Shown one piece after another: positions 5,232 through 42,361 of a stretch of DNA of 43,691 bases. Positions within the stretch are counted from its first letter, which is position 1; the number at the start of each line of letters is the position of its first letter. The translations under genes and the position numbers were made by a program. Origin of the DNA: a virus (lineage: Duplodnaviria; Heunggongvirae; Uroviricota; Caudoviricetes); IMG/VR virus record IMGVR_UViG_2645727945_000025, positions 1 to 43,691 of that record, one strand, 5' to 3'. Below the pieces are notes generated by a model that saw nothing but the letters and a program-made list of their open reading frames with translations, made no database searches and was not told the DNA's origin.

Positions 5232-5743
5232 GCCGCGTTTCCTTCTTTCTTATTAACAATTACACCGTCATATATTTCATTAAGGTGCCCTCTCAACTCC
5301 ATGCGCCTTAATGCAGATAACATGTAATCGCATTCAACCTGCTTATTTCCAGTAAATGGCTTATCGTCAGGATTACCCCAACAGCAATTACCCTTGGGCC
5401 ACCCATGTACTTTCCGTACTCTTCCGTTAACAACGTGAAGTAATCCCCAGCCAGGTGGTAAATCCTCAACTGAAATAATTCCCGGCTCACTAATAAAGAA
5501 TCGCCAGTCGCCCATTCCAAGAGACGGATTTTTACGAAAACGCTTTTTTCTATCTGCCAACAAGTCAGCACGAGAACATTTCGCCTCTATCAGGCATGAT
5601 GCTGAATTTCTGAATCCCATAGCATCTGGCTGTTCTCCGGTACTGGTTACAGCTATAAAGCGGTCATGAAAACAAACCTTGAACCCGTTGCGCTTAAGGA
5701 ACTTGTACGCAATCTGACAGAGTTCGCGGTGTGTTAACGCCAT
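5228..5743 (-). CDS. Hypothetical protein with PD-(D/E)xK-like motif (PD...EAK), 171 aa
   Basis: Track ORF 5228-5815; start at Met25 with AGGAG RBS; near-identical paralog at 42890-43405 in prophage 2. Confidence 0.55.
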   Translation of the reverse strand: MALTHRELCQIAYKFLKRNGFKVCFHDRFIAVTSTGEQPDAMGFRNSASCLIEAKCSRADLLADRKKRFRKNPSLGMGDWRFFISEPGIISVEDLPPGWGLLHVVNGRVRKVHGWPKGNCCWGNPDDKPFTGNKQVECDYMLSALRRMELRGHLNEIYDGVIVNKKEGNAA

Positions 5744-10810: not shown

Positions 10811-11083
10811 TTACCTCGCCGTCAGTTGTTTTGATTTCCGGTAGCCTGCCGCGTAAATGGCTACGTTTGGCAGGCAAATACTTCCACTGTATTCATCTGC
10901 CTTCTTGCAGCGAAGACTTCCGAGTGATGCTGCTTTATCTGCTCTGACGCAACCAGAGAGCTTTAGCGCAATCTTTCGCGCCAGTCGCTGTTCTTGCATT
11001 GCCTGTTCACGTTGAGCCTGTCTGCGTGCTCTGCGGTGATTTCTGGCGTTATCGTCAGCCAGATATGTAATGACTACTGTCAT
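10811..11083 (-). CDS. N: N-like transcription antiterminator (90 aa)
   Basis: Track ORF 10811-11155; start at Met25 with GGAGG RBS; arginine-rich N-terminus (NARNHRRARRQAQ) and C-terminus like P22 gp24; downstream of nutL. Confidence 0.7.
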   Translation of the reverse strand: MTVVITYLADDNARNHRRARRQAQREQAMQEQRLARKIALKLSGCVRADKAASLGSLRCKKADEYSGSICLPNVAIYAAGYRKSKQLTAR

Positions 11084-11123
11084 GTTGACCTCCGGGTAGG
11101 TGCACATCCTTGTGTGTCGATGA

Positions 11124-11243
11124 TTATTTGTTTTTGCGTTCCCACATCCAGTCATCTACTTCAGACCAGATAGTGAAACCGAAGCAGATGGCGAATGTGG
11201 TAACTAAACCACCGAGAATTGGGTTGGTCATGATGTCTAACAT
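11124..11243 (-). CDS. Possible 39-aa hydrophobic peptide between nutL and N
   Basis: ATG with GAGGAACAGAAA RBS; single predicted TM segment; below track threshold. Confidence 0.3.
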   Translation of the reverse strand: MLDIMTNPILGGLVTTFAICFGFTIWSEVDDWMWERKNK

Positions 11244-11674: not shown

Positions 11675-12043
11675 TTAGTCAGCGAAGGTTAAGACGAGAA
11701 TTACCTTAATGATGTCTGCTACAACAGACACGGCCATAGATAAACCAAAGACGATCCAAGCCATAGAGATGTCTTCACTACCATCGTATAGAGTTCCGTA
11801 ATCACTGGTGTAAGGCGTAAATGTCGCGCCTTGATACAATAGGTATAAGCTTGATCCATAGAGGATAAATGCAGATATCCCTTGTATTGCCATGATCACC
11901 AGAATCATGAAACGAGCTGATCTATGCGCCCAAGCCTGGCTTATTTTTTCTGATAGAGATTTCGCAATAAAAGCATGCGCTAAGCCGTAAATTGTTGAGA
12001 TTGCCAACATCCCCAAAAAGCTTGCTATAGCGGTTCCAACCAT
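11675..12043 (-). CDS. Predicted 3-TM membrane protein directly downstream of cI (rexB-like slot)
   Basis: Track ORF 11675-12064 abuts cI stop; ATG at 12043 with AAGGGG RBS or TTG at 12064; three hydrophobic helices. Confidence 0.55.
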   Translation of the reverse strand: MVGTAIASFLGMLAISTIYGLAHAFIAKSLSEKISQAWAHRSARFMILVIMAIQGISAFILYGSSLYLLYQGATFTPYTSDYGTLYDGSEDISMAWIVFGLSMAVSVVADIIKVILVLTFAD

Positions 12044-12060
12044 AATCGCCCCTTGCGTGA

Positions 12061-12777
12061 TCAAACCAGCCTTAGTTTTGTCTCAATTGCAACGCCTATA
12101 ATCTTGCAGTTTCCATTGATTGGCACGAGAGGCCATGCAGGATTAAGTCCCTTGAGGTATTTATTTCCGCCGTCGATTATCAGCTTCTTGAATGTTGCTT
12201 CGTTAGAGTCAGAAAGTTTTGCTATGACCAAGCTGCCGTTGATCGCCTCCCTTCCGGTATCGAAAAGAACGAATGTTCCCTCTGGAATGCTTAACCCAAC
12301 CGGTGCCGTCATTGAATCACCTTCCACTTTAAGCCAGAACGCATTACCTTGAATATGCGCGTCAGACTCAAGCCAAACATCTATGTCTTTAATGGTGTAT
12401 GGTTCGCATGCTTCACACCACGAGCCAGCCTGGATACTGCTTAACACCGGATACCTCTTTCCTGCTCTGTATTCCCCTGCATACCTTACGTTGGCATCGC
12501 TCTTAAGGCTTTCTGCCTGTTCTGCAACCTTGGCAGCAATTGACTGGCTAAAATCAGCAATTGAGACTTGCAACAATCGTGCAAAACCAGATGCAACCTC
12601 AACGTTTAGCGCGTTTCTGCCATTAAGATAATGCCCTACCGCTCCTTGGGTGATACCCAGTTCATCAGCGATTGAGTATTGGGTTATTCCCAATTCTTTC
12701 TTTTTTGACTCATACAAAGCCTTAAGACGCTTAGCGTCTTCGAGCTGTTCTGTCGTCAGTGATTTTTTATTTTCCAT
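12061..12777 (-). CDS. cI: CI repressor (HTH plus S24 LexA-like autocleavage domain), 238 aa
   Basis: Recalled similarity to lambda CI throughout (LTTEQLEDAKRLKALYE..., FWLKVEGDSMTAP..., C-terminal S24 domain). Confidence 0.9.
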   Translation of the reverse strand: MENKKSLTTEQLEDAKRLKALYESKKKELGITQYSIADELGITQGAVGHYLNGRNALNVEVASGFARLLQVSIADFSQSIAAKVAEQAESLKSDANVRYAGEYRAGKRYPVLSSIQAGSWCEACEPYTIKDIDVWLESDAHIQGNAFWLKVEGDSMTAPVGLSIPEGTFVLFDTGREAINGSLVIAKLSDSNEATFKKLIIDGGNKYLKGLNPAWPLVPINGNCKIIGVAIETKLRLV

Positions 12778-13084: not shown

Positions 13085-13128
13085 CGCTCTTTAACAGTCA
13101 TGGTCATCATTCCCGCCGAAATGCGGGA
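13085..13128 (+). promoter_or_regulatory. nutR (boxA CGCTCTTTA plus boxB hairpin)
   Basis: CGCTCTTTA at about 13085-13093; boxB TCCCGCCGAAATGCGGGA at about 13111-13128. Confidence 0.55.
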
Positions 13129-13186
13129 ATACAACGCGCATACGTTGATGCGCATAACTTCTTATTTGTTAAGGAAATACTTACAT

Positions 13187-13465
13187 ATGGAACTTACAAG
13201 TACTCGCAAGAAAGCGAATGCAATTACAAGCAACATCCTGAATCGAATTGCTGTACGTGGTCAGCGAAAGGTTGCTGATGCATTAGGGATCAATGAATCG
13301 CAAATTTCGCGATGGAAAGACAGCTTTATCCCAAAGATGGCCATGCTTCTGGCTGTACTGGAGTGGGGTGTTGAAGACGAGGAGTTGGCGGAACTGGCTA
13401 AGAAAGTAGCCAGAATGCTGACAAAAGAAAAAGCCCCGAAGAACGGCGAATTCTTCGAGGCCTGA
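13187..13465 (+). CDS. cII: CII transcriptional activator (92 aa)
   Basis: Recalled similarity to lambda CII (SQISRWK...MLLAVLEWGV); AAGGAAA RBS before the internal ATG of track ORF 13100-13465. Confidence 0.8.
   Translation: MELTSTRKKANAITSNILNRIAVRGQRKVADALGINESQISRWKDSFIPKMAMLLAVLEWGVEDEELAELAKKVARMLTKEKAPKNGEFFEA
13421..13460 (-). terminator. oop-like antisense terminator overlapping the cII 3' end (approx.)
   Basis: Minus strand: CC(T)CGAAGAA-TTCGCCG-TTCTTCG(G)GG hairpin followed by CTTTTTCTTTTG; CATAAT -10-like element about 65 nt upstream. Confidence 0.4.
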
Positions 13466-13499: not shown

Positions 13500-14144
13500 A
13501 TGACATACGAAAATGACAAATTCCAGGTTCTGAAGAGCATGAAGGTGCCAGATGATTTTAAATCAAATGGCTTTGTTTATGTGCTTTCGAATGAGTGCAT
13601 GCCAGGAATTTATAAGATTGGGATGACTAAGCATTCACCAGAAGTTAGGGCTAAAGAAATTTCAGCCTCTACTGGCGTTCCTAAGCCATTTAAGGTGATA
13701 GCAGCCTTTCATTCAAATAATCCCGCATCAGATGAAAAACTCATTCATAAAGCCTTTGCAAAAGAGAGGCTTAGTGATAATCGAGAGTTTTTCAAGCTTG
13801 AAGATAATGATCTTTCTGAATCTCTAAATGAAATAAGGGCGCTGGTTGGCCCTGAAAGAAATGGCGAGACGGCAGAATACGCAATTTACGACTCATTCAT
13901 TTCTTTTCGCCATGAAAATGAGCTTGATCTTAATGAGGAGCTTATAGAGCAAGGTCTGGGTAGTGTAGTTGGTCATCTTCCTGCGGTGAAAAATTTCCTT
14001 ATTCGCGCCGGAATTGCTTACGCGAAGCAACTGATAAGCAAATATAACTCATCGATAGTTATTAATACAGATGGCAGTGTGGTGATGGTTAAGTCTCTTG
14101 AAGCCCAATGCTTTGATGCGGAGGTTGGAAATGAGCCTGGCTGA
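13500..14144 (+). CDS. T5orf172/GIY-YIG-superfamily domain protein (214 aa), moron between cII and O
   Basis: N-terminal motif GFVYVLSN...GIYKIGMT...R...F.V...E.LIHKAF...REFF; strong AGGAG RBS; AT-rich. Confidence 0.6.
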   Translation: MTYENDKFQVLKSMKVPDDFKSNGFVYVLSNECMPGIYKIGMTKHSPEVRAKEISASTGVPKPFKVIAAFHSNNPASDEKLIHKAFAKERLSDNREFFKLEDNDLSESLNEIRALVGPERNGETAEYAIYDSFISFRHENELDLNEELIEQGLGSVVGHLPAVKNFLIRAGIAYAKQLISKYNSSIVINTDGSVVMVKSLEAQCFDAEVGNEPG

Positions 14145-14973
14145 AGTATTTTACCTGCCGAAGAGTGAACCTGTTGAACAGGAGCGAAGAGTGGCTGATA
14201 TCGATGATGGTTACACCAGATTCGCTAACGAGCTGCTGGAAGCTATCGCAAGTGCCGATTTAACCGCTCGCCAGTTGAAAGTTATGCTGGCCTACGTCCG
14301 GAAAACATATGGATTCAATAAGAAAACAGATCGAATAGCCGATGAGCAAATTGCTCAGTTAACAGGACTGTCAAGGCAGAATGTTAACAAGGCTAAAAAA
14401 GAACTGATTTCAATGAATTGCCTGTTTATGGATGGAAATCAAATCGGTGTAAACAGTGAGGTATCTGCGTGGCAATTCAGCAAGTGTCTCCAAGTTAGCA
14501 ACTTTGTCTCGAAGTTAGAGACAAAAAATGTCTCCAAATTAGAGACACTCAATGTCTCGAAGTTAGAGACACACAAAAGACATTCTTTAAAGACAAAAGA
14601 AAATATTAATAACCCCCCTATATCCCCCAAAAAAGTTTCTCAGAAGTTCGACCCGCTAGAAACAGAGTTGCCTGATTGGTTATCAGCAGAAACATGGTTG
14701 TCGTGGGTTACCTATCGCAAGGAGATAGGTAAGTCGATCAAGTCTAAGCAAAGTGTCACTCAGGCTATCAACGTTCTAAGCAGAAGTCTGGAGAAGGGAT
14801 ATACACCTGAAGAAATTATAAACCAGAGCATCGCCAGTGGTTGGCAGGGGATTTTTGAGCCCAAGACTTCAAAGGGGAAATCTCAACCGAGGCCGCAGCA
14901 TCGAGCTATGCAGGAAAACTTTGCCACCAAAGATTACGGACAAACTGAAATGCCTTCATGGGCGCAGGAGTGA
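14131..14973 (+). CDS. O: Replication initiator O (lambda O-like N-terminus)
   Basis: N-terminal similarity to lambda O (DDGY.R..N.LLEA...ADLT.RQ.KV.LA..RKTYG.NK..DRI); ori iterons inside the gene; start at Met12 (alternative 14098). Confidence 0.8.
   Translation: MSLAEVFYLPKSEPVEQERRVADIDDGYTRFANELLEAIASADLTARQLKVMLAYVRKTYGFNKKTDRIADEQIAQLTGLSRQNVNKAKKELISMNCLFMDGNQIGVNSEVSAWQFSKCLQVSNFVSKLETKNVSKLETLNVSKLETHKRHSLKTKENINNPPISPKKVSQKFDPLETELPDWLSAETWLSWVTYRKEIGKSIKSKQSVTQAINVLSRSLEKGYTPEEIINQSIASGWQGIFEPKTSKGKSQPRPQHRAMQENFATKDYGQTEMPSWAQE
14484..14615. repeat. Origin of replication: four ~19-bp iterons (TGTCTC-N7-GAGACA) plus AT-rich tract
   Basis: Tandem copies at about 14484-14502, 14504-14523, 14528-14548, 14550-14572, then an A/T-rich stretch. 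Confidence 0.65.
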
Positions 14974-14975
14974 AC

Positions 14976-15821
14976 ATGACGCTGGATGAAAAGATCTTCC
15001 AACTGGAGAAAAAACTTGCAGAATTGAGTTCTCCGCCAATTGCTATCGAGCATACAGCTGTAGAAATTGGCACTGGCATCTGTGAAAAACATGGTGAGTT
15101 TGAGCAGCGTAACCGTTACTCGACTGGGCCAATTAAGTTTGCCTCAAGACCTAGCGAATGCCCGGAATGCATGAGAGATGAGCTTATTCGGCTACAGGCA
15201 GAGAAGATTAAAATCGACGAGGAATCACGTAAGCGCAATGTCGAGTTTCTGTTGAATAATCTTGATATTCCTGAACGATTCAAGGGTTGCACACTACAGA
15301 ACTACGAGCCAGTCAACGACGATGCAAAGAGAGTGCTCAGGGTGTGTCAGGCATACGCCAGCAAATGGCCTGAGAGGTTACAGAAAGGCGGTGGGCTGGT
15401 TATGTGTGGAAAGCCTGGTACTGGAAAGAATCATCTTGCACTGGCTATCGCCTGGCACGCAATTACGGAACATCAAAGCTCAGCTATTTTCACAACGGCG
15501 CTGAAAATTGCCAGAGAATATAAATCAACATGGTCGAAAAACTCCACCCGCACTGAGGATGAAGTGATCCGACAGTTCACTAAACCTGACCTGCTAATTA
15601 TCGATGAGGTTGGTGTGCAGTTTGGAAGCGAGGCGGAAAAGATGATCATGTTCGAAATCATCAACACCCGCTACGAGCGTATGAAGCCAACAATCCTGAT
15701 TAGCAACCAGAGCAAAGATGAACTGTCTGCATTCATTGGTGAGCGTGTTATTGACAGGATGAATGATGGCGGCGGATGCACCCTTGCGTTTACATGGGAT
15801 AGTTACAGGAGCAGATCGTGA
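14976..15821 (+). CDS. DnaC-like helicase loader (IstB-type AAA+ ATPase)
   Basis: Walker A GKPGTGKNHLA and Walker B LLIIDEVG; GGAG RBS; follows O. Confidence 0.8.
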   Translation: MTLDEKIFQLEKKLAELSSPPIAIEHTAVEIGTGICEKHGEFEQRNRYSTGPIKFASRPSECPECMRDELIRLQAEKIKIDEESRKRNVEFLLNNLDIPERFKGCTLQNYEPVNDDAKRVLRVCQAYASKWPERLQKGGGLVMCGKPGTGKNHLALAIAWHAITEHQSSAIFTTALKIAREYKSTWSKNSTRTEDEVIRQFTKPDLLIIDEVGVQFGSEAEKMIMFEIINTRYERMKPTILISNQSKDELSAFIGERVIDRMNDGGGCTLAFTWDSYRSRS

Positions 15822-16133: not shown

Positions 16134-16164
16134 AGGCCTGCTGGTAATCGCAGGCCTTTTTATT
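16134..16164 (+). terminator. tR2-like intrinsic terminator preceding the nin region
   Basis: AGGCCTGC-TGGTAATC-GCAGGCCT hairpin followed by TTTTTATTT. Confidence 0.6.
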
Positions 16165-16181: not shown

Positions 16182-16622
16182 ATGAAAAAACTAACCTTTG
16201 AAATTCGATCTCCAGCACATCAGCAAAACGCTATTCACGCAGTACAGCAAATTCTTCCAGACCCAACCAAACCAATCGTAGTAACCATTCAGGAACGCAA
16301 CCGCAGCTTAGACCAAAACCGAAAGCTTTGGGCTTGCCTTGGTGACGTCTCTCGTCAGGTTGAATGGCATGGTCGCTGGCTGGATGCAGAAAGTTGGAAG
16401 TGTGTGTTTACCGCAGCATTAAAGCAGCAGGACGTTGTTCCTAACCTTGCCGGGAATGGCTTTGTGGTAATAGGCCAGTCAACCAGCAGGATGCGTGTAA
16501 GCGAATTTGCGGAGCTATTAGAGCTTATACAGGCATTCGGTACAGAGCGTGGCGTTAAGTGGTCAGACGAAGCGCGACTGGCTCTCGAATGGAAAGCGCG
16601 ATGGGGAGATCGGGCAGCATGA
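16182..16622 (+). CDS. ninB: NinB recombination protein
   Basis: Recalled near-identity to lambda NinB (MKKLTFEIRSPAHQQNAIHAVQQILPDP...). Confidence 0.85.
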   Translation: MKKLTFEIRSPAHQQNAIHAVQQILPDPTKPIVVTIQERNRSLDQNRKLWACLGDVSRQVEWHGRWLDAESWKCVFTAALKQQDVVPNLAGNGFVVIGQSTSRMRVSEFAELLELIQAFGTERGVKWSDEARLALEWKARWGDRAA

Positions 16623-17146
16623 CTATCAAATCAAATACGCCAGCACACGACAAGGACTGCTGGCAAACGCCGCTTTGGCTTTTTGATGCACTGGATATTG
16701 AGTTTGGATTCTGGCTGGATTCGGCAGCGAGCGACAAAAATGCTCTGTGTGCTCACTGGCTAACTGAGGCCGACGACGCGCTCAATTCTGAGTGGGTAAG
16801 CCACGGTGCAATCTGGAATAACCCACCGTACAGCAATATCAGGCCGTGGGTGGAAAAAGCCGCTGAGCAGTGCATACAACAGCGACAGACGGTAGTTATG
16901 CTTGTGCCAGAGGATATGTCAGTCGGATGGTTCAGCAAGGCTCTGGAGAGTGTCGACGAAGTTCGCATTATCACTGATGGACGGATTAATTTTATCGAAC
17001 CATCGACAGGGTTGGAGAAGAAGGGAAACAGCAAAGGCTCCATGCTGCTGATTTGGCGACCGTTCATCAGTCCTCGACGGATGTTTACTACCGTATCCAA
17101 AGCGGCATTGATGGCGATCGGGCAGGGCGTCAGGAGGGCGGCATGA
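16619..17146 (+). CDS. DNA N6-adenine methyltransferase (phage Dam-like, orphan)
   Basis: NPPY catalytic motif (IWNNPPYS); ATGA overlap with ninB; no adjacent restriction gene. Confidence 0.8.
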
Positions 17147-17319
17147 GGCGACAGCGACGAAGTATCACCGACATCATCTGCGAAAACTGCAAATACCTTC
17201 CAACGAAACGCTCCAGAAATAAACGCAAGCAAATCCCAAAAGAATCTGACGTAAAAACCTTCAACTACACGGCTCACCTGTGGGATATCCGGTGGCTAAG
17301 ACATCGTGCGAGGAAATGA
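17143..17319 (+). CDS. ninE: NinE
   Basis: Recalled similarity to lambda NinE ([20 protein letters not shown]...). Confidence 0.7.
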
Positions 17320-17857: not shown

Positions 17858-18062
17858 TTACCTGAAATGGTATCTCTGCCACCGCTGGTTAATTAAGTTT
17901 GCTGTAAAAGACTGGATGACAGCGGATGCCAACAAGCTTAAGCAAAGAAAAGACTATTACTACGCCAGAATGAAGGAAAACTACTGCTCAATTCGCACTC
18001 GCATATTTATTAAAAAAGACCTTCAGTCAATTCTTCAATTGCGAGGGAAGGTAAATGGCTAA
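17850..18062 (+). CDS. Hypothetical nin-region protein (70 aa)
   Basis: Track ORF. Confidence 0.45.
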   Translation: MSDYLKWYLCHRWLIKFAVKDWMTADANKLKQRKDYYYARMKENYCSIRTRIFIKKDLQSILQLRGKVNG

Positions 18063-18345
18063 CCTACGCAAAGAAGCGCGCGGCAGAGAATGCCAGGTAC
18101 GTATTTACGGCGTATGCAATGGCAATCCTGAAACTACAGTTCTGGCACATTACCGGATGGCTGGAATTTGCGGAACGGGAATGAAACCTGACGACATGAT
18201 CGGCGCATGGGCTTGTAGCGCGTGTCACGATGAAATCGACCGACGCACCCATAACCTCGACAACAAAGACGCCAGACTTTACCACCTCGAAGGCGTGATC
18301 AGGACGCAGGCGATACTGCTGAAGGAGGGGAAGATTAAGTCATGA
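18055..18345 (+). CDS. ybcO: YbcO-like (DUF1364) Cys-rich protein
   Basis: Recalled similarity to DLP12 YbcO (RGRECQVRI.GVCNGNPET.VLAH...CSACHDEIDRRTH). Confidence 0.65.
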   Translation: MANLRKEARGRECQVRIYGVCNGNPETTVLAHYRMAGICGTGMKPDDMIGAWACSACHDEIDRRTHNLDNKDARLYHLEGVIRTQAILLKEGKIKS

Positions 18346-18704
18346 ACGAATATCAGTTTGTGCTTCCATACCCGCCGTCGGTGAACACCTACTGGCGAAG
18401 ACGGGGAAGCCAATACTACATCAGCGATAAAGGCCAGAAATACCGAAAAGACGTTCAGCAAATCATCCGCCAACTCAAGTTAGACATTTTCACCAAATCA
18501 CGACTACGAATCAAAATAATCGCAGACATTCCGGACTCACGTCGCCGCGATCTCGACAACATCCTTAAATGCTTGCTCGACTCCCTTATCCACGCCGGAT
18601 TTGCGGAAGACGACGAGCAATTCGATGACATTCGCGTAATTCGTGGTGTGAAAGTACCAGGCGGAAGGCTTGGAATAAAAATCACCGAACTGGAGAACGT
18701 ATGA
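18342..18704 (+). CDS. rusA: RusA Holliday-junction resolvase
   Basis: 120 aa; RusA motifs (PPS.N.Y, DIPD.RRRDLDN, GGRL.I.I.E). Confidence 0.85.
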   Translation: MNEYQFVLPYPPSVNTYWRRRGSQYYISDKGQKYRKDVQQIIRQLKLDIFTKSRLRIKIIADIPDSRRRDLDNILKCLLDSLIHAGFAEDDEQFDDIRVIRGVKVPGGRLGIKITELENV

Positions 18705-18889: not shown

Positions 18890-19404
18890 GCATAAGAGAA
18901 CTAAATCTCACCAAAGAGCAGCACGAGTGGCTGAATGGCTGGCTTGAACTGTGGGGCGCATGGGTTTATTCAGGTCGTCTGGAAAAGCGCATGAGCAGCG
19001 TAATAGCGAAGTTCATGGAGAGCGTAGAGCCGGGAAGAGTTATGACAAGGCCAATGTGCAATGATGATGATGGAATGTTGATTTCTCAGGTCGTCGATTC
19101 CGTCATGTACATTGACAAAAAAGCCTTTGGGATCCTCCTCAGCTACTACGCTCATGGTTCATCTAAGCGAGCAATTGCATCCTACTATCACGCGACTGCA
19201 AAGCCACGCAAGATGTGTGGACGTGGTGGCGAGGGATGGAGAAAACCTTCACTGGCAACCTGTAGAAACGAAATTGACGACATCCTGAAAGCGTCGTTAT
19301 TTGTTTTGTACCAACCAATGCAAAATGCTTTCAAAATGCGTAAACGTGTTGAGAAAGTTAAGCATGTTGCTGTTAAAAGCCTTGACATGCAATTAGCCAT
19401 TTAG
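18886..19404 (+). CDS. Q: Late-gene antiterminator Q (P22 gp23-type family)
   Basis: Motifs LELWGAW, RPMCNDDDGMLI, SYYAHG shared with P22-type Q; immediately upstream of PR' and the lysis genes. Confidence 0.75.
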   Translation: MSIRELNLTKEQHEWLNGWLELWGAWVYSGRLEKRMSSVIAKFMESVEPGRVMTRPMCNDDDGMLISQVVDSVMYIDKKAFGILLSYYAHGSSKRAIASYYHATAKPRKMCGRGGEGWRKPSLATCRNEIDDILKASLFVLYQPMQNAFKMRKRVEKVKHVAVKSLDMQLAI

Positions 19405-19411
19405 CCATAAT
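19382..19411 (+). promoter_or_regulatory. Candidate late promoter PR' (-35 TTGACA, -10 CATAAT)
   Basis: Consensus hexamers with 18-bp spacer at the 3' end of Q. Confidence 0.5.
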
Positions 19412-41137: not shown

Positions 41138-41201
41138 ATTCGTAATGCGAAGGTCGTAGGTTCGACTCCTATTATCGGCACCATTTAAATCAATAAGTTA
41201 C
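41138..41201. repeat. attR of prophage 1 and attL of prophage 2: second 64-bp core copy with tRNA 3' fragment
   Basis: Identical to 1399-1462; the 5' tRNA half is not reconstituted here (no GCCGAT acceptor strand upstream). Confidence 0.85.
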
Positions 41202-42361
41202 ACATCATTAGTACCTTCCTTATTTTTTGACTGGGACAAATTTGGGACCGATGGGTTCAGAATCGAGTCTATTTGCCGTGCGTGTTCGGTAAGGTGATTA
41301 GGCGCGAGGTGAGCATATCGACGAACCATTTCGATAGACTCCCAGCCACCCATTTCCTGTAACACTGACAACGGGACTCCGGCTTGAACCAGCCAACTTG
41401 CCCAGGTGTGTCTCAAGTCGTGAAATCTGAAATCATCAATACCAGCTCGTCTCAGCGCCGCTTTCCAGGCTGTGTTTGCGTCATACCGCATCTTCCTTAC
41501 TGTTGGCGCTTTCGTTCCGTCTGGTTTGGTACAGCTTTCCTTGTACACAAATACCCAACGGTGATGATTCCCGATTTGTTTTTTCAAAACGCGACATGCA
41601 GTATCATTCAGCGCAACGCCGATTGCGCGGTTTGATTTACTCTCTTCCGGGTTTATCCATGCCACCCGGCGCTGCATATCTATTTGTTGCCATTCAAGGT
41701 TGATGATGTTCGAGCGTCTTAAACCTGTTGCCAGTGCAAATTCAACAACAGACTTTAATGGCTCCGGACATTCATCAATCAGCCTTTGTGCTTCATGGGG
41801 CTCCAGCCAGCGGATCCGTTTATTCTTTGGTTGAGGCACTTTAATAATTGGTGCCTTATCCAGCATTTTCCATTCACGCTCTGCGGCTCTTAGTAGGGCC
41901 TTTATAAATGAAAGATGCGTAGCCTTCGTTGCAACGGACGCTGGTTTTGGCGTGTATTCTGGAACAGGTTTCCCTTTTTTTCTGCATGCTTCTGCCCTGA
42001 GTTTCCAGTTTTCCTCATGACGCCGGTTCGTCATTTTCTGCATTGCTGAATAAATTTTTGATTCAGTAATGTCTCTTAGTTGCATTCCTGCGAAATGTTG
42101 AAGCCAGAATCCGATCCGGCTTTTGTCATCGTCCAGTGATTTTTTATGTGCTTTCTCTTCAAGCCACCTGACACACGCTTCCTCGAACGTTATATCAGGT
42201 ATTTCACCAAGTTTGCTGACCCGCCATGCTTCAGCCTTTAGCTTGTCATGGAGTTCTGTCGCCTGCCTTTTGTCCTTTGTTCCAAGAGACTGTTTAAATC
42301 TTTTACCGTTCGGCAATGTGAAACTGGCGTACCATATTTCACCTCTGCGGAAGAGTGACAT
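41198..42361 (-). CDS. int: Tyrosine integrase of prophage 2 (P22 Int-like, 387 aa)
   Basis: Recalled close similarity to P22 Int ([33 protein letters not shown]...); stop inside the att core. Confidence 0.95.

Follow-up and report, generated by a model that had tools for sequence, protein, structure and literature searches.

A dam-type orphan methyltransferase gene between ninB and ninE of a P22-like prophage encodes a protein identical to VT2-Sakai orf32

The window, by which we mean the whole stretch of 43,691 nucleotides that was analysed, contains a complete P22-like prophage with proteins of the coat, portal, scaffold, gp7 and tailspike head-binding families. The prophage is integrated at a tRNA-Thr(CGU) gene (thrW, 1369–1444) and is flanked by a direct repeat with a length of 62 bp or more (1399–1460 and 41138–41199). 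No record in the phage or E. coli collections matches the prophage as a whole; since it is a mosaic, the best records cover only 34–55% of each half. A second integrase gene (41198–42361, minus strand; PF00589, 3e-48) follows directly after the right-hand repeat, suggesting tandem integration of a second element at this tRNA site.

A dam-type gene (phage N-6-adenine DNA methyltransferase) occupies positions 16619–17146 on the plus strand, between the recombination mediator gene ninB/orf (16182–16622, plus strand; PF05772, 1.3e-54; 441 nt, the length of the RefSeq CDS) and ninE (17143–17319, plus strand; PF05322, 1.5e-42). The reading frame of 528 nt runs from an ATG at 16619 to a TGA at 17144–17146 without frameshift or internal stop and encodes a protein of 175 aa. 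A longer, GTG-started form (16559, 195 aa) is also present in the mechanical ORF list; RefSeq uses the 528-nt form. The purine-rich sequence GGGGAGA (16603–16609, plus strand), which falls within the 3' end of ninB, 9 nt ahead of the ATG, is the likely Shine–Dalgarno sequence of dam. In E. coli ECCHD184, RefSeq annotates a 528-nt CDS that is 100% identical at the DNA level and has the same 4-nt overlaps with NinB and NinE. An antisense ORF (16753–17277, 174 aa) was dismissed as a non-gene: RefSeq has no annotation on that strand in the ECCHD184 record, which is identical across the dam CDS.

Both ends of dam overlap with the adjacent genes. At the upstream junction, GCAGCATGACT, the ATG of dam (16619–16621) and the TGA of ninB (16620–16622) have TG in common and thus form an ATGA; at the downstream junction, the ATG of ninE (17143) and the TGA of dam (17144–17146) form another, again with two bases common to both. 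The original prediction held that the methyltransferase gene is translationally coupled to ninB, and the overlap that it relied on is indeed present. However, overlaps of this kind are common to lambdoid nin regions in general (PMC8022706), so that the coupling says nothing particular about dam. It is real at the level of the sequence and not peculiar to this gene, and from the overlap we infer that translation of the two frames may actually be coupled.

The deduced protein matches Pfam family PF05869 ("Dam") with an E-value of 6.4e-65 (218.4 bits, cutoff 28.1; profile positions 1–167 of 169) and the NCBIfam equivalog TIGR01712 ("phage N-6-adenine-methyltransferase") with an E-value of 9.7e-80 (265.9 bits, cutoff 97.05; positions 1–165 of 165). 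It is also matched by phrog_111 of PHROGs ("DNA methyltransferase", 8.6e-88) and by the PADLOC model "orphan methyltransferase" (3.6e-19). The protein contains the sequence IWNNPPYS, in which N68-P69-P70-Y71 represent catalytic motif IV, encoded by AAC CCA CCG TAC at 16820–16831 (plus strand). All four residues are invariant in an alignment of 46 sequences comprising homologues of 59–86% identity, and the same is true of T17, P18, D34 and A36. The NPPY motif named in the original prediction is therefore present and conserved, and the profile matches together with the flanking ninB and ninE genes agree with its description of the locus as an orphan phage N6-adenine methyltransferase gene in the nin region. 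Judged by its sequence, the product is a phage-borne orphan enzyme, a DNA N6-adenine methyltransferase that depends on S-adenosylmethionine and belongs to the small "T1/HP1/VT2 Dam" family (PF05869, TIGR01712). Enzymes of this family are approximately 175 aa long and consist of a Rossmann catalytic core with NPPY, without a separate target-recognition domain.

PF05869 is the sole Pfam family matched by the protein; PF02086 and MT-A70 are absent. We also considered a non-specific methylase of the M.EcoGII type, and this was ruled out: M.EcoGII is described as a beta-class enzyme, and the dam protein matched PF05869 alone in Pfam. No methyltransferase family besides Dam occurs among the Pfam families listed for the other ORFs of the window (the listing covers the first 25 families of each bulk scan; for the left arm, 25 of 30).

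A phmmer search against PDB sequences gave no match at E < 0.2 and no Dam chain at E ≤ 1. We built a structure model of the 175-aa protein from the 46-sequence alignment (pLDDT 85.4, pTM 0.85). The modelled protein is a bare Rossmann-type class-I methyltransferase core without a separate recognition domain. Structural comparison gave scores of 10.3 for PCIF1/CAPAM (Foldseek E 7e-5), 9.6 for M.TaqI, 9.3 for E. coli Dam, 9.1 for M.BseCI and 8.8 for T4 Dam; the closest solved fold is that of PCIF1, an RNA cap m6Am methylase. The model superposes on the catalytic domains only of PCIF1, M.TaqI, Dam and M.BseCI, which are proteins of 240–550 residues.

The alpha-class enzymes E. coli Dam, T4 Dam and DpnM (PF02086) carry out the same reaction on what is reported to be the same site, forming m6A in GATC. 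Nevertheless, the phage protein has no detectable sequence similarity to them and no PF02086 match. When it is compared with the solved chains of Dam, T4 Dam and DpnM (241–258 residues), 104–108 residues superpose with 8–11% identity, and the phage enzyme does not have the target-recognition domain that the other three carry inserted in the catalytic domain. It is not an orthologue of host Dam, and the name "Dam" reflects the reported site and function, not ancestry. A hairpin formed by residues 120–140, which is less confidently modelled, is a candidate for the element that reads GATC.

The protein is identical in all 175 of 175 residues to orf32 of phage VT2-Sakai (BAA84315, "similar to DNA methylase"), which is situated between the nin146 and nin60 homologues. 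We take orf32 to be the enzyme entered in REBASE as M.EcoVT2Dam, because it is the sole methylase-like gene in the VT2-Sakai annotation; orf4 was considered as a second methylase of that phage and ruled out, since it is a DUF551 protein. In PMC6602927, with reference to Radlinska & Bujnicki 2001, M.EcoVT2Dam is described as "known to target 5'-GATC-3'", and homologues are also listed there with GATC. By this secondary citation, and provided that orf32 is M.EcoVT2Dam, the enzyme encoded in the window is reported to methylate GATC. For the dam product of phage Phi24B, too, 100% identity with the VT2-Sakai protein has been reported.

VT2-Sakai orf32 is likewise situated between ninB and ninE, with the same 4-nt overlaps, and is an orphan there too. 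The two proteins do not differ; what differs is the carrier, which is a podovirus-type, P22-like prophage at thrW here and a Stx-converting phage in the case of M.EcoVT2Dam, and this is ordinary lambdoid mosaicism. Our analysis re-identifies a named and characterised gene, which the original prediction had treated as an open question. The gene was already known: it carries a RefSeq name, and the identical protein has, as far as can be told, been cloned and assigned GATC specificity. Our literature searches found neither in-vitro enzymology nor a structure for the PF05869 family.

We weighed whether the true substrate might not simply be GATC DNA, with the enzyme having a relaxed specificity, acting on single-stranded DNA or RNA, or depending on a partner such as the product of the upstream gene. 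Several features would fit such a substrate. The protein is a catalytic core with no recognisable target-recognition domain, its closest solved fold belongs to an RNA methylase, and its gene is tightly coupled to ninB, whose product is a recombination mediator with homologues that prefer single-stranded DNA (PMC4118853). There is also a precedent among Stx phages: the prophage-encoded "DNA adenine methyltransferase" M.EcoPA8orf6770P, which is similar to M.EcoGV, acts with its partner PNB-2 as a 16S rRNA methylase (PMC10810198, 2023). That study is a caution that specificities derived from in-vivo overexpression can be incomplete or mislead.

M.EcoGV and M.EcoPA8orf6770P resemble the enzyme described here in that they are prophage-borne, orphan and annotated as GATC adenine methylases, and an enzyme of their type can share one Stx2 prophage with M.EcoVT2Dam. 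However, they belong to the MT-A70 family with a DPPW motif, require the partner PNB-2 encoded upstream and prefer RNA, whereas the dam protein has NPPY and no MT-A70 Pfam match, and its gene neighbours are ninB and ninE. The possibility that dam is itself the 16S rRNA methylase of PMC10810198 was ruled out, since that enzyme is an MT-A70/DPPW protein encoded at gp5–gp7, near 3.3 kb and far from the nin region.

Homologues of 66–73% identity are found in the early regions of Yersinia, Providencia and Serratia prophages, where the neighbours differ. The gene upstream of dam is ninB in E. coli, a DUF1367 gene in Serratia and an unrelated small ORF in Providencia and Yersinia. No conserved partner is apparent from this variation, and NinB was ruled out as an obligate partner of the methyltransferase. 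Together with the difference in motif and the report that M.EcoVT2Dam, taken as the identical orf32 protein, is a GATC methylase, this makes a substrate other than GATC DNA very unlikely in our view. A related conjecture, which we regard as distinctly improbable, is that a mini-Dam without a target-recognition domain is more than a duplicate of host Dam activity: it could read GATC, broader sites, single-stranded intermediates of replication or recombination, or RNA by some minimal mechanism, and its selective role might be to overcome a methylation-sensitive defence that is not classical restriction. The minimal mechanism might be a dimer or the beta-hairpin of residues 120–140.

The 70 ORFs of the prophage include no restriction-endonuclease family among the matches listed by PADLOC and Pfam, which covers described families. 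The original prediction that no partner endonuclease lies nearby therefore holds up within this scope. Downstream of ninE follow NinX, NinF, YbcO, RusA, NinH and then the Q antiterminator. The nuclease-type proteins of the prophage are YbcO (18055–18345), RusA (18342–18704) and a 214-aa T5orf172/MUG113 protein (GIY-YIG-like, 13500–14144). RusA and YbcO, the latter by its Pfam name, are ordinary nucleases of the nin set and not restriction enzymes.

With nuclease-type domains less than 2.5 kb away on both sides of dam, the methylase could be thought of as one half of a restriction-modification or toxin-like pair, and the T5orf172/GIY-YIG-like protein or YbcO would be the candidate partners. Neither partner accompanies the methylase elsewhere, however. 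In VT2-Sakai, which encodes the identical methylase, cII and O have no gene between them; in the ECCHD184 prophage, the place of ybcO is taken by a truncated DUF1364 pseudogene; and the homologues in other genera occur without either neighbour. No endonuclease was found beside the homologues in the Yersinia, Providencia and Serratia prophages. In addition, no ORF matched any restriction-endonuclease model, and both RusA and YbcO belong to the usual nin gene set. The label "orphan" holds for dam, as none of the nuclease-type proteins of the prophage co-varies with the methylase, and the already disfavoured idea of a hidden nuclease partner is hardly credible.

A strong intrinsic-terminator-like hairpin followed by a T-run is located between the replication genes and ninB (16134–16157, plus strand; 8 bp stem, 6 G-C pairs). 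By its position, we take this hairpin to be the equivalent of lambda tR2. A search for sigma-70-like promoters revealed no strong site between 13.8 and 19.0 kb, and no credible internal promoter for dam. A PR'-like site is present after Q (19382–19411), and the N gene is found at 10811–11155. The tR2-like terminator would tie expression of dam to antitermination by N. The enzyme would then be a delayed-early product of the PR transcript that appears after infection or induction, when antitermination by N has set in, and is not made in the stable lysogen. Location downstream of the tR2-like terminator in the PR operon fits the early lytic expression that had been proposed from the sequence alone.

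The original prediction further suggested that leaky expression may methylate host DNA in lysogens. In its stronger form, the methylase would be an epigenetic regulator in the lysogen, where leaky or separately promoted enzyme would alter methylation of host or prophage and thereby gene expression or prophage stability. There are data that point in this direction. The Phi24B dam product was found in a screen for proteins of lysogen cultures, and the authors speculated that it supplements host Dam in maintaining lysogeny. Host Dam itself is reportedly needed for stable lysogeny of phage 933W, a result that others attribute to Murphy et al. 2008. On the other hand, qPCR with Phi24B linked four of five chosen genes, dam among the five, to the lytic cycle, with lom as the stated exception, and dam changed significantly on induction. 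This pattern suggests that the product comes from a spontaneously induced subpopulation. The hairpin upstream of ninB and the lack of a good internal promoter also argue against expression in the lysogen.

A further argument comes from the methylomes of Shiga toxin-producing E. coli (STEC) that contain the dam gene in extra copies (PMC6602927). The methylomes of these strains showed GATC only, methylated to 99.9%, and the contributions of Dam and its homologues could not be told apart by the authors. Chromosomal GATC is methylated to this degree with or without extra phage Dam copies, so that an additional enzyme has almost no sites left. A regulatory role in the lysogen is therefore quite unlikely, and leaky methylation in a dam+ host would be invisible and probably of no effect. 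The same consideration affects how activity can be detected. The original prediction took the lack of a new m6A motif as a reason for rejecting it, and this reasoning is invalid: the reported target is the site of host Dam, so that dam+ lysogens show no new motif whether or not the enzyme is active. Methylome comparison in a dam+ background thus cannot reveal activity of the phage enzyme; a dam- host or virion DNA would.

We consider it highly probable that, as a whole explanation, the gene encodes a mini-Dam with GATC specificity that is expressed as a delayed-early product and tops up GATC methylation of replicating phage DNA. Host Dam is known to leave the virion DNA of P22 and lambda under-methylated, "possibly because replication outstrips modification" (PMC8022706). 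The phage enzyme would supplement the limited host Dam during fast phage replication, and progeny genomes would then be fully methylated at GATC. Genomes in this state would resist restriction enzymes of the MboI/DpnII type, which cleave GATC in its unmethylated form, or enzymes with overlapping sites, and might also escape attack by MutH at unmethylated or hemimethylated GATC. An anti-restriction or epigenetic role, as put forward in the original prediction, is plausible on these grounds, but what phage Dam enzymes do is described as "still not well understood" (PMC7556043). It counts against such a role that the host already has Dam, and any gain from a second GATC methylase is presumptive.

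GATC is depleted in the window (1–43691), with 105 sites observed and approximately 206 expected from a second-order Markov model (ratio 0.51). Of the 16 palindromic tetramers, CTAG alone has a lower rank, and the depletion of GATC is even over the length of the prophage. Avoidance of GATC and a GATC methylase thus occur together in one phage. This could mean that methylation is not the sole or main answer to a pressure directed at GATC.

Among phage records, 244 contain DNA at least 95% identical to dam. Of 5426 complete E. coli genomes, 1566 (approximately 29%) contain such DNA, with up to five copies per genome. The phage carriers at this level of identity include Stx1- and Stx2-converting phages, HK544, Sf6, Sf101 and lambda-like isolates, and the same gene is also found in HK97. 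In nearly all records among the matches listed, the annotation places dam between NinB and NinE. With tblastn, homologues of the family were detected in 1908 of 50,697 phage records, from temperate as well as virulent phages. Some of the phages matched are T1-like coliphages and Klebsiella phages, whose homologues are approximately 30–35% identical to the dam protein.

The methylases of the T1-like phages (Drexlerviridae) and other PF05869 phage methylases belong to the same Pfam/TIGR family as the protein described here, and they are likewise small, phage-borne and orphan with an NPPY core. They differ in their low identity (approximately 30–35%), in residing in virulent phages and in having other gene neighbourhoods.

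In the Providencia prophages (approximately 5258–5633), the dam homologue is followed, at a distance of about 1 kb, by a gene for the restriction-alleviation protein Lar (PF14354), and a second methylase gene (PF01555) lies after Q. Anti-restriction functions thus appear to be clustered in the Providencia lineage.

Other genes in the early region of the window are also worth recording. The 214-aa ORF at 13500–14144 (plus strand) lies between cII (13100–13465) and the replication gene O (14098–14973). PADLOC relates it to the candidate defence family PDC-S57 (6e-29) and, in its match to a C-terminal domain, to PD-Lambda-1 (9e-12; the domain is that of PD-Lambda-1), and the ORF looks like an accessory or defence gene of the prophage inserted in the early-right operon. 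On the minus strand, a 129-aa ORF (11675–12064) overlaps by 4 nt with the end of the cI-like repressor gene (12061–12777, minus strand; Peptidase_S24/HTH_3). This ORF has no Pfam or PADLOC match, and it is situated in the slot where lambdoid prophages often have exclusion genes that are expressed in the lysogen (rex, sieB). The second replication gene (14958–15821, plus strand) encodes an IstB/DnaC-like AAA+ ATPase (PF01695, PF00308), unlike lambda P or the DnaB-type helicase genes of the related prophages that we retrieved; its weak PADLOC match to DrmD (1.7e-10) is probably due to similarity of the ATPase domain only.
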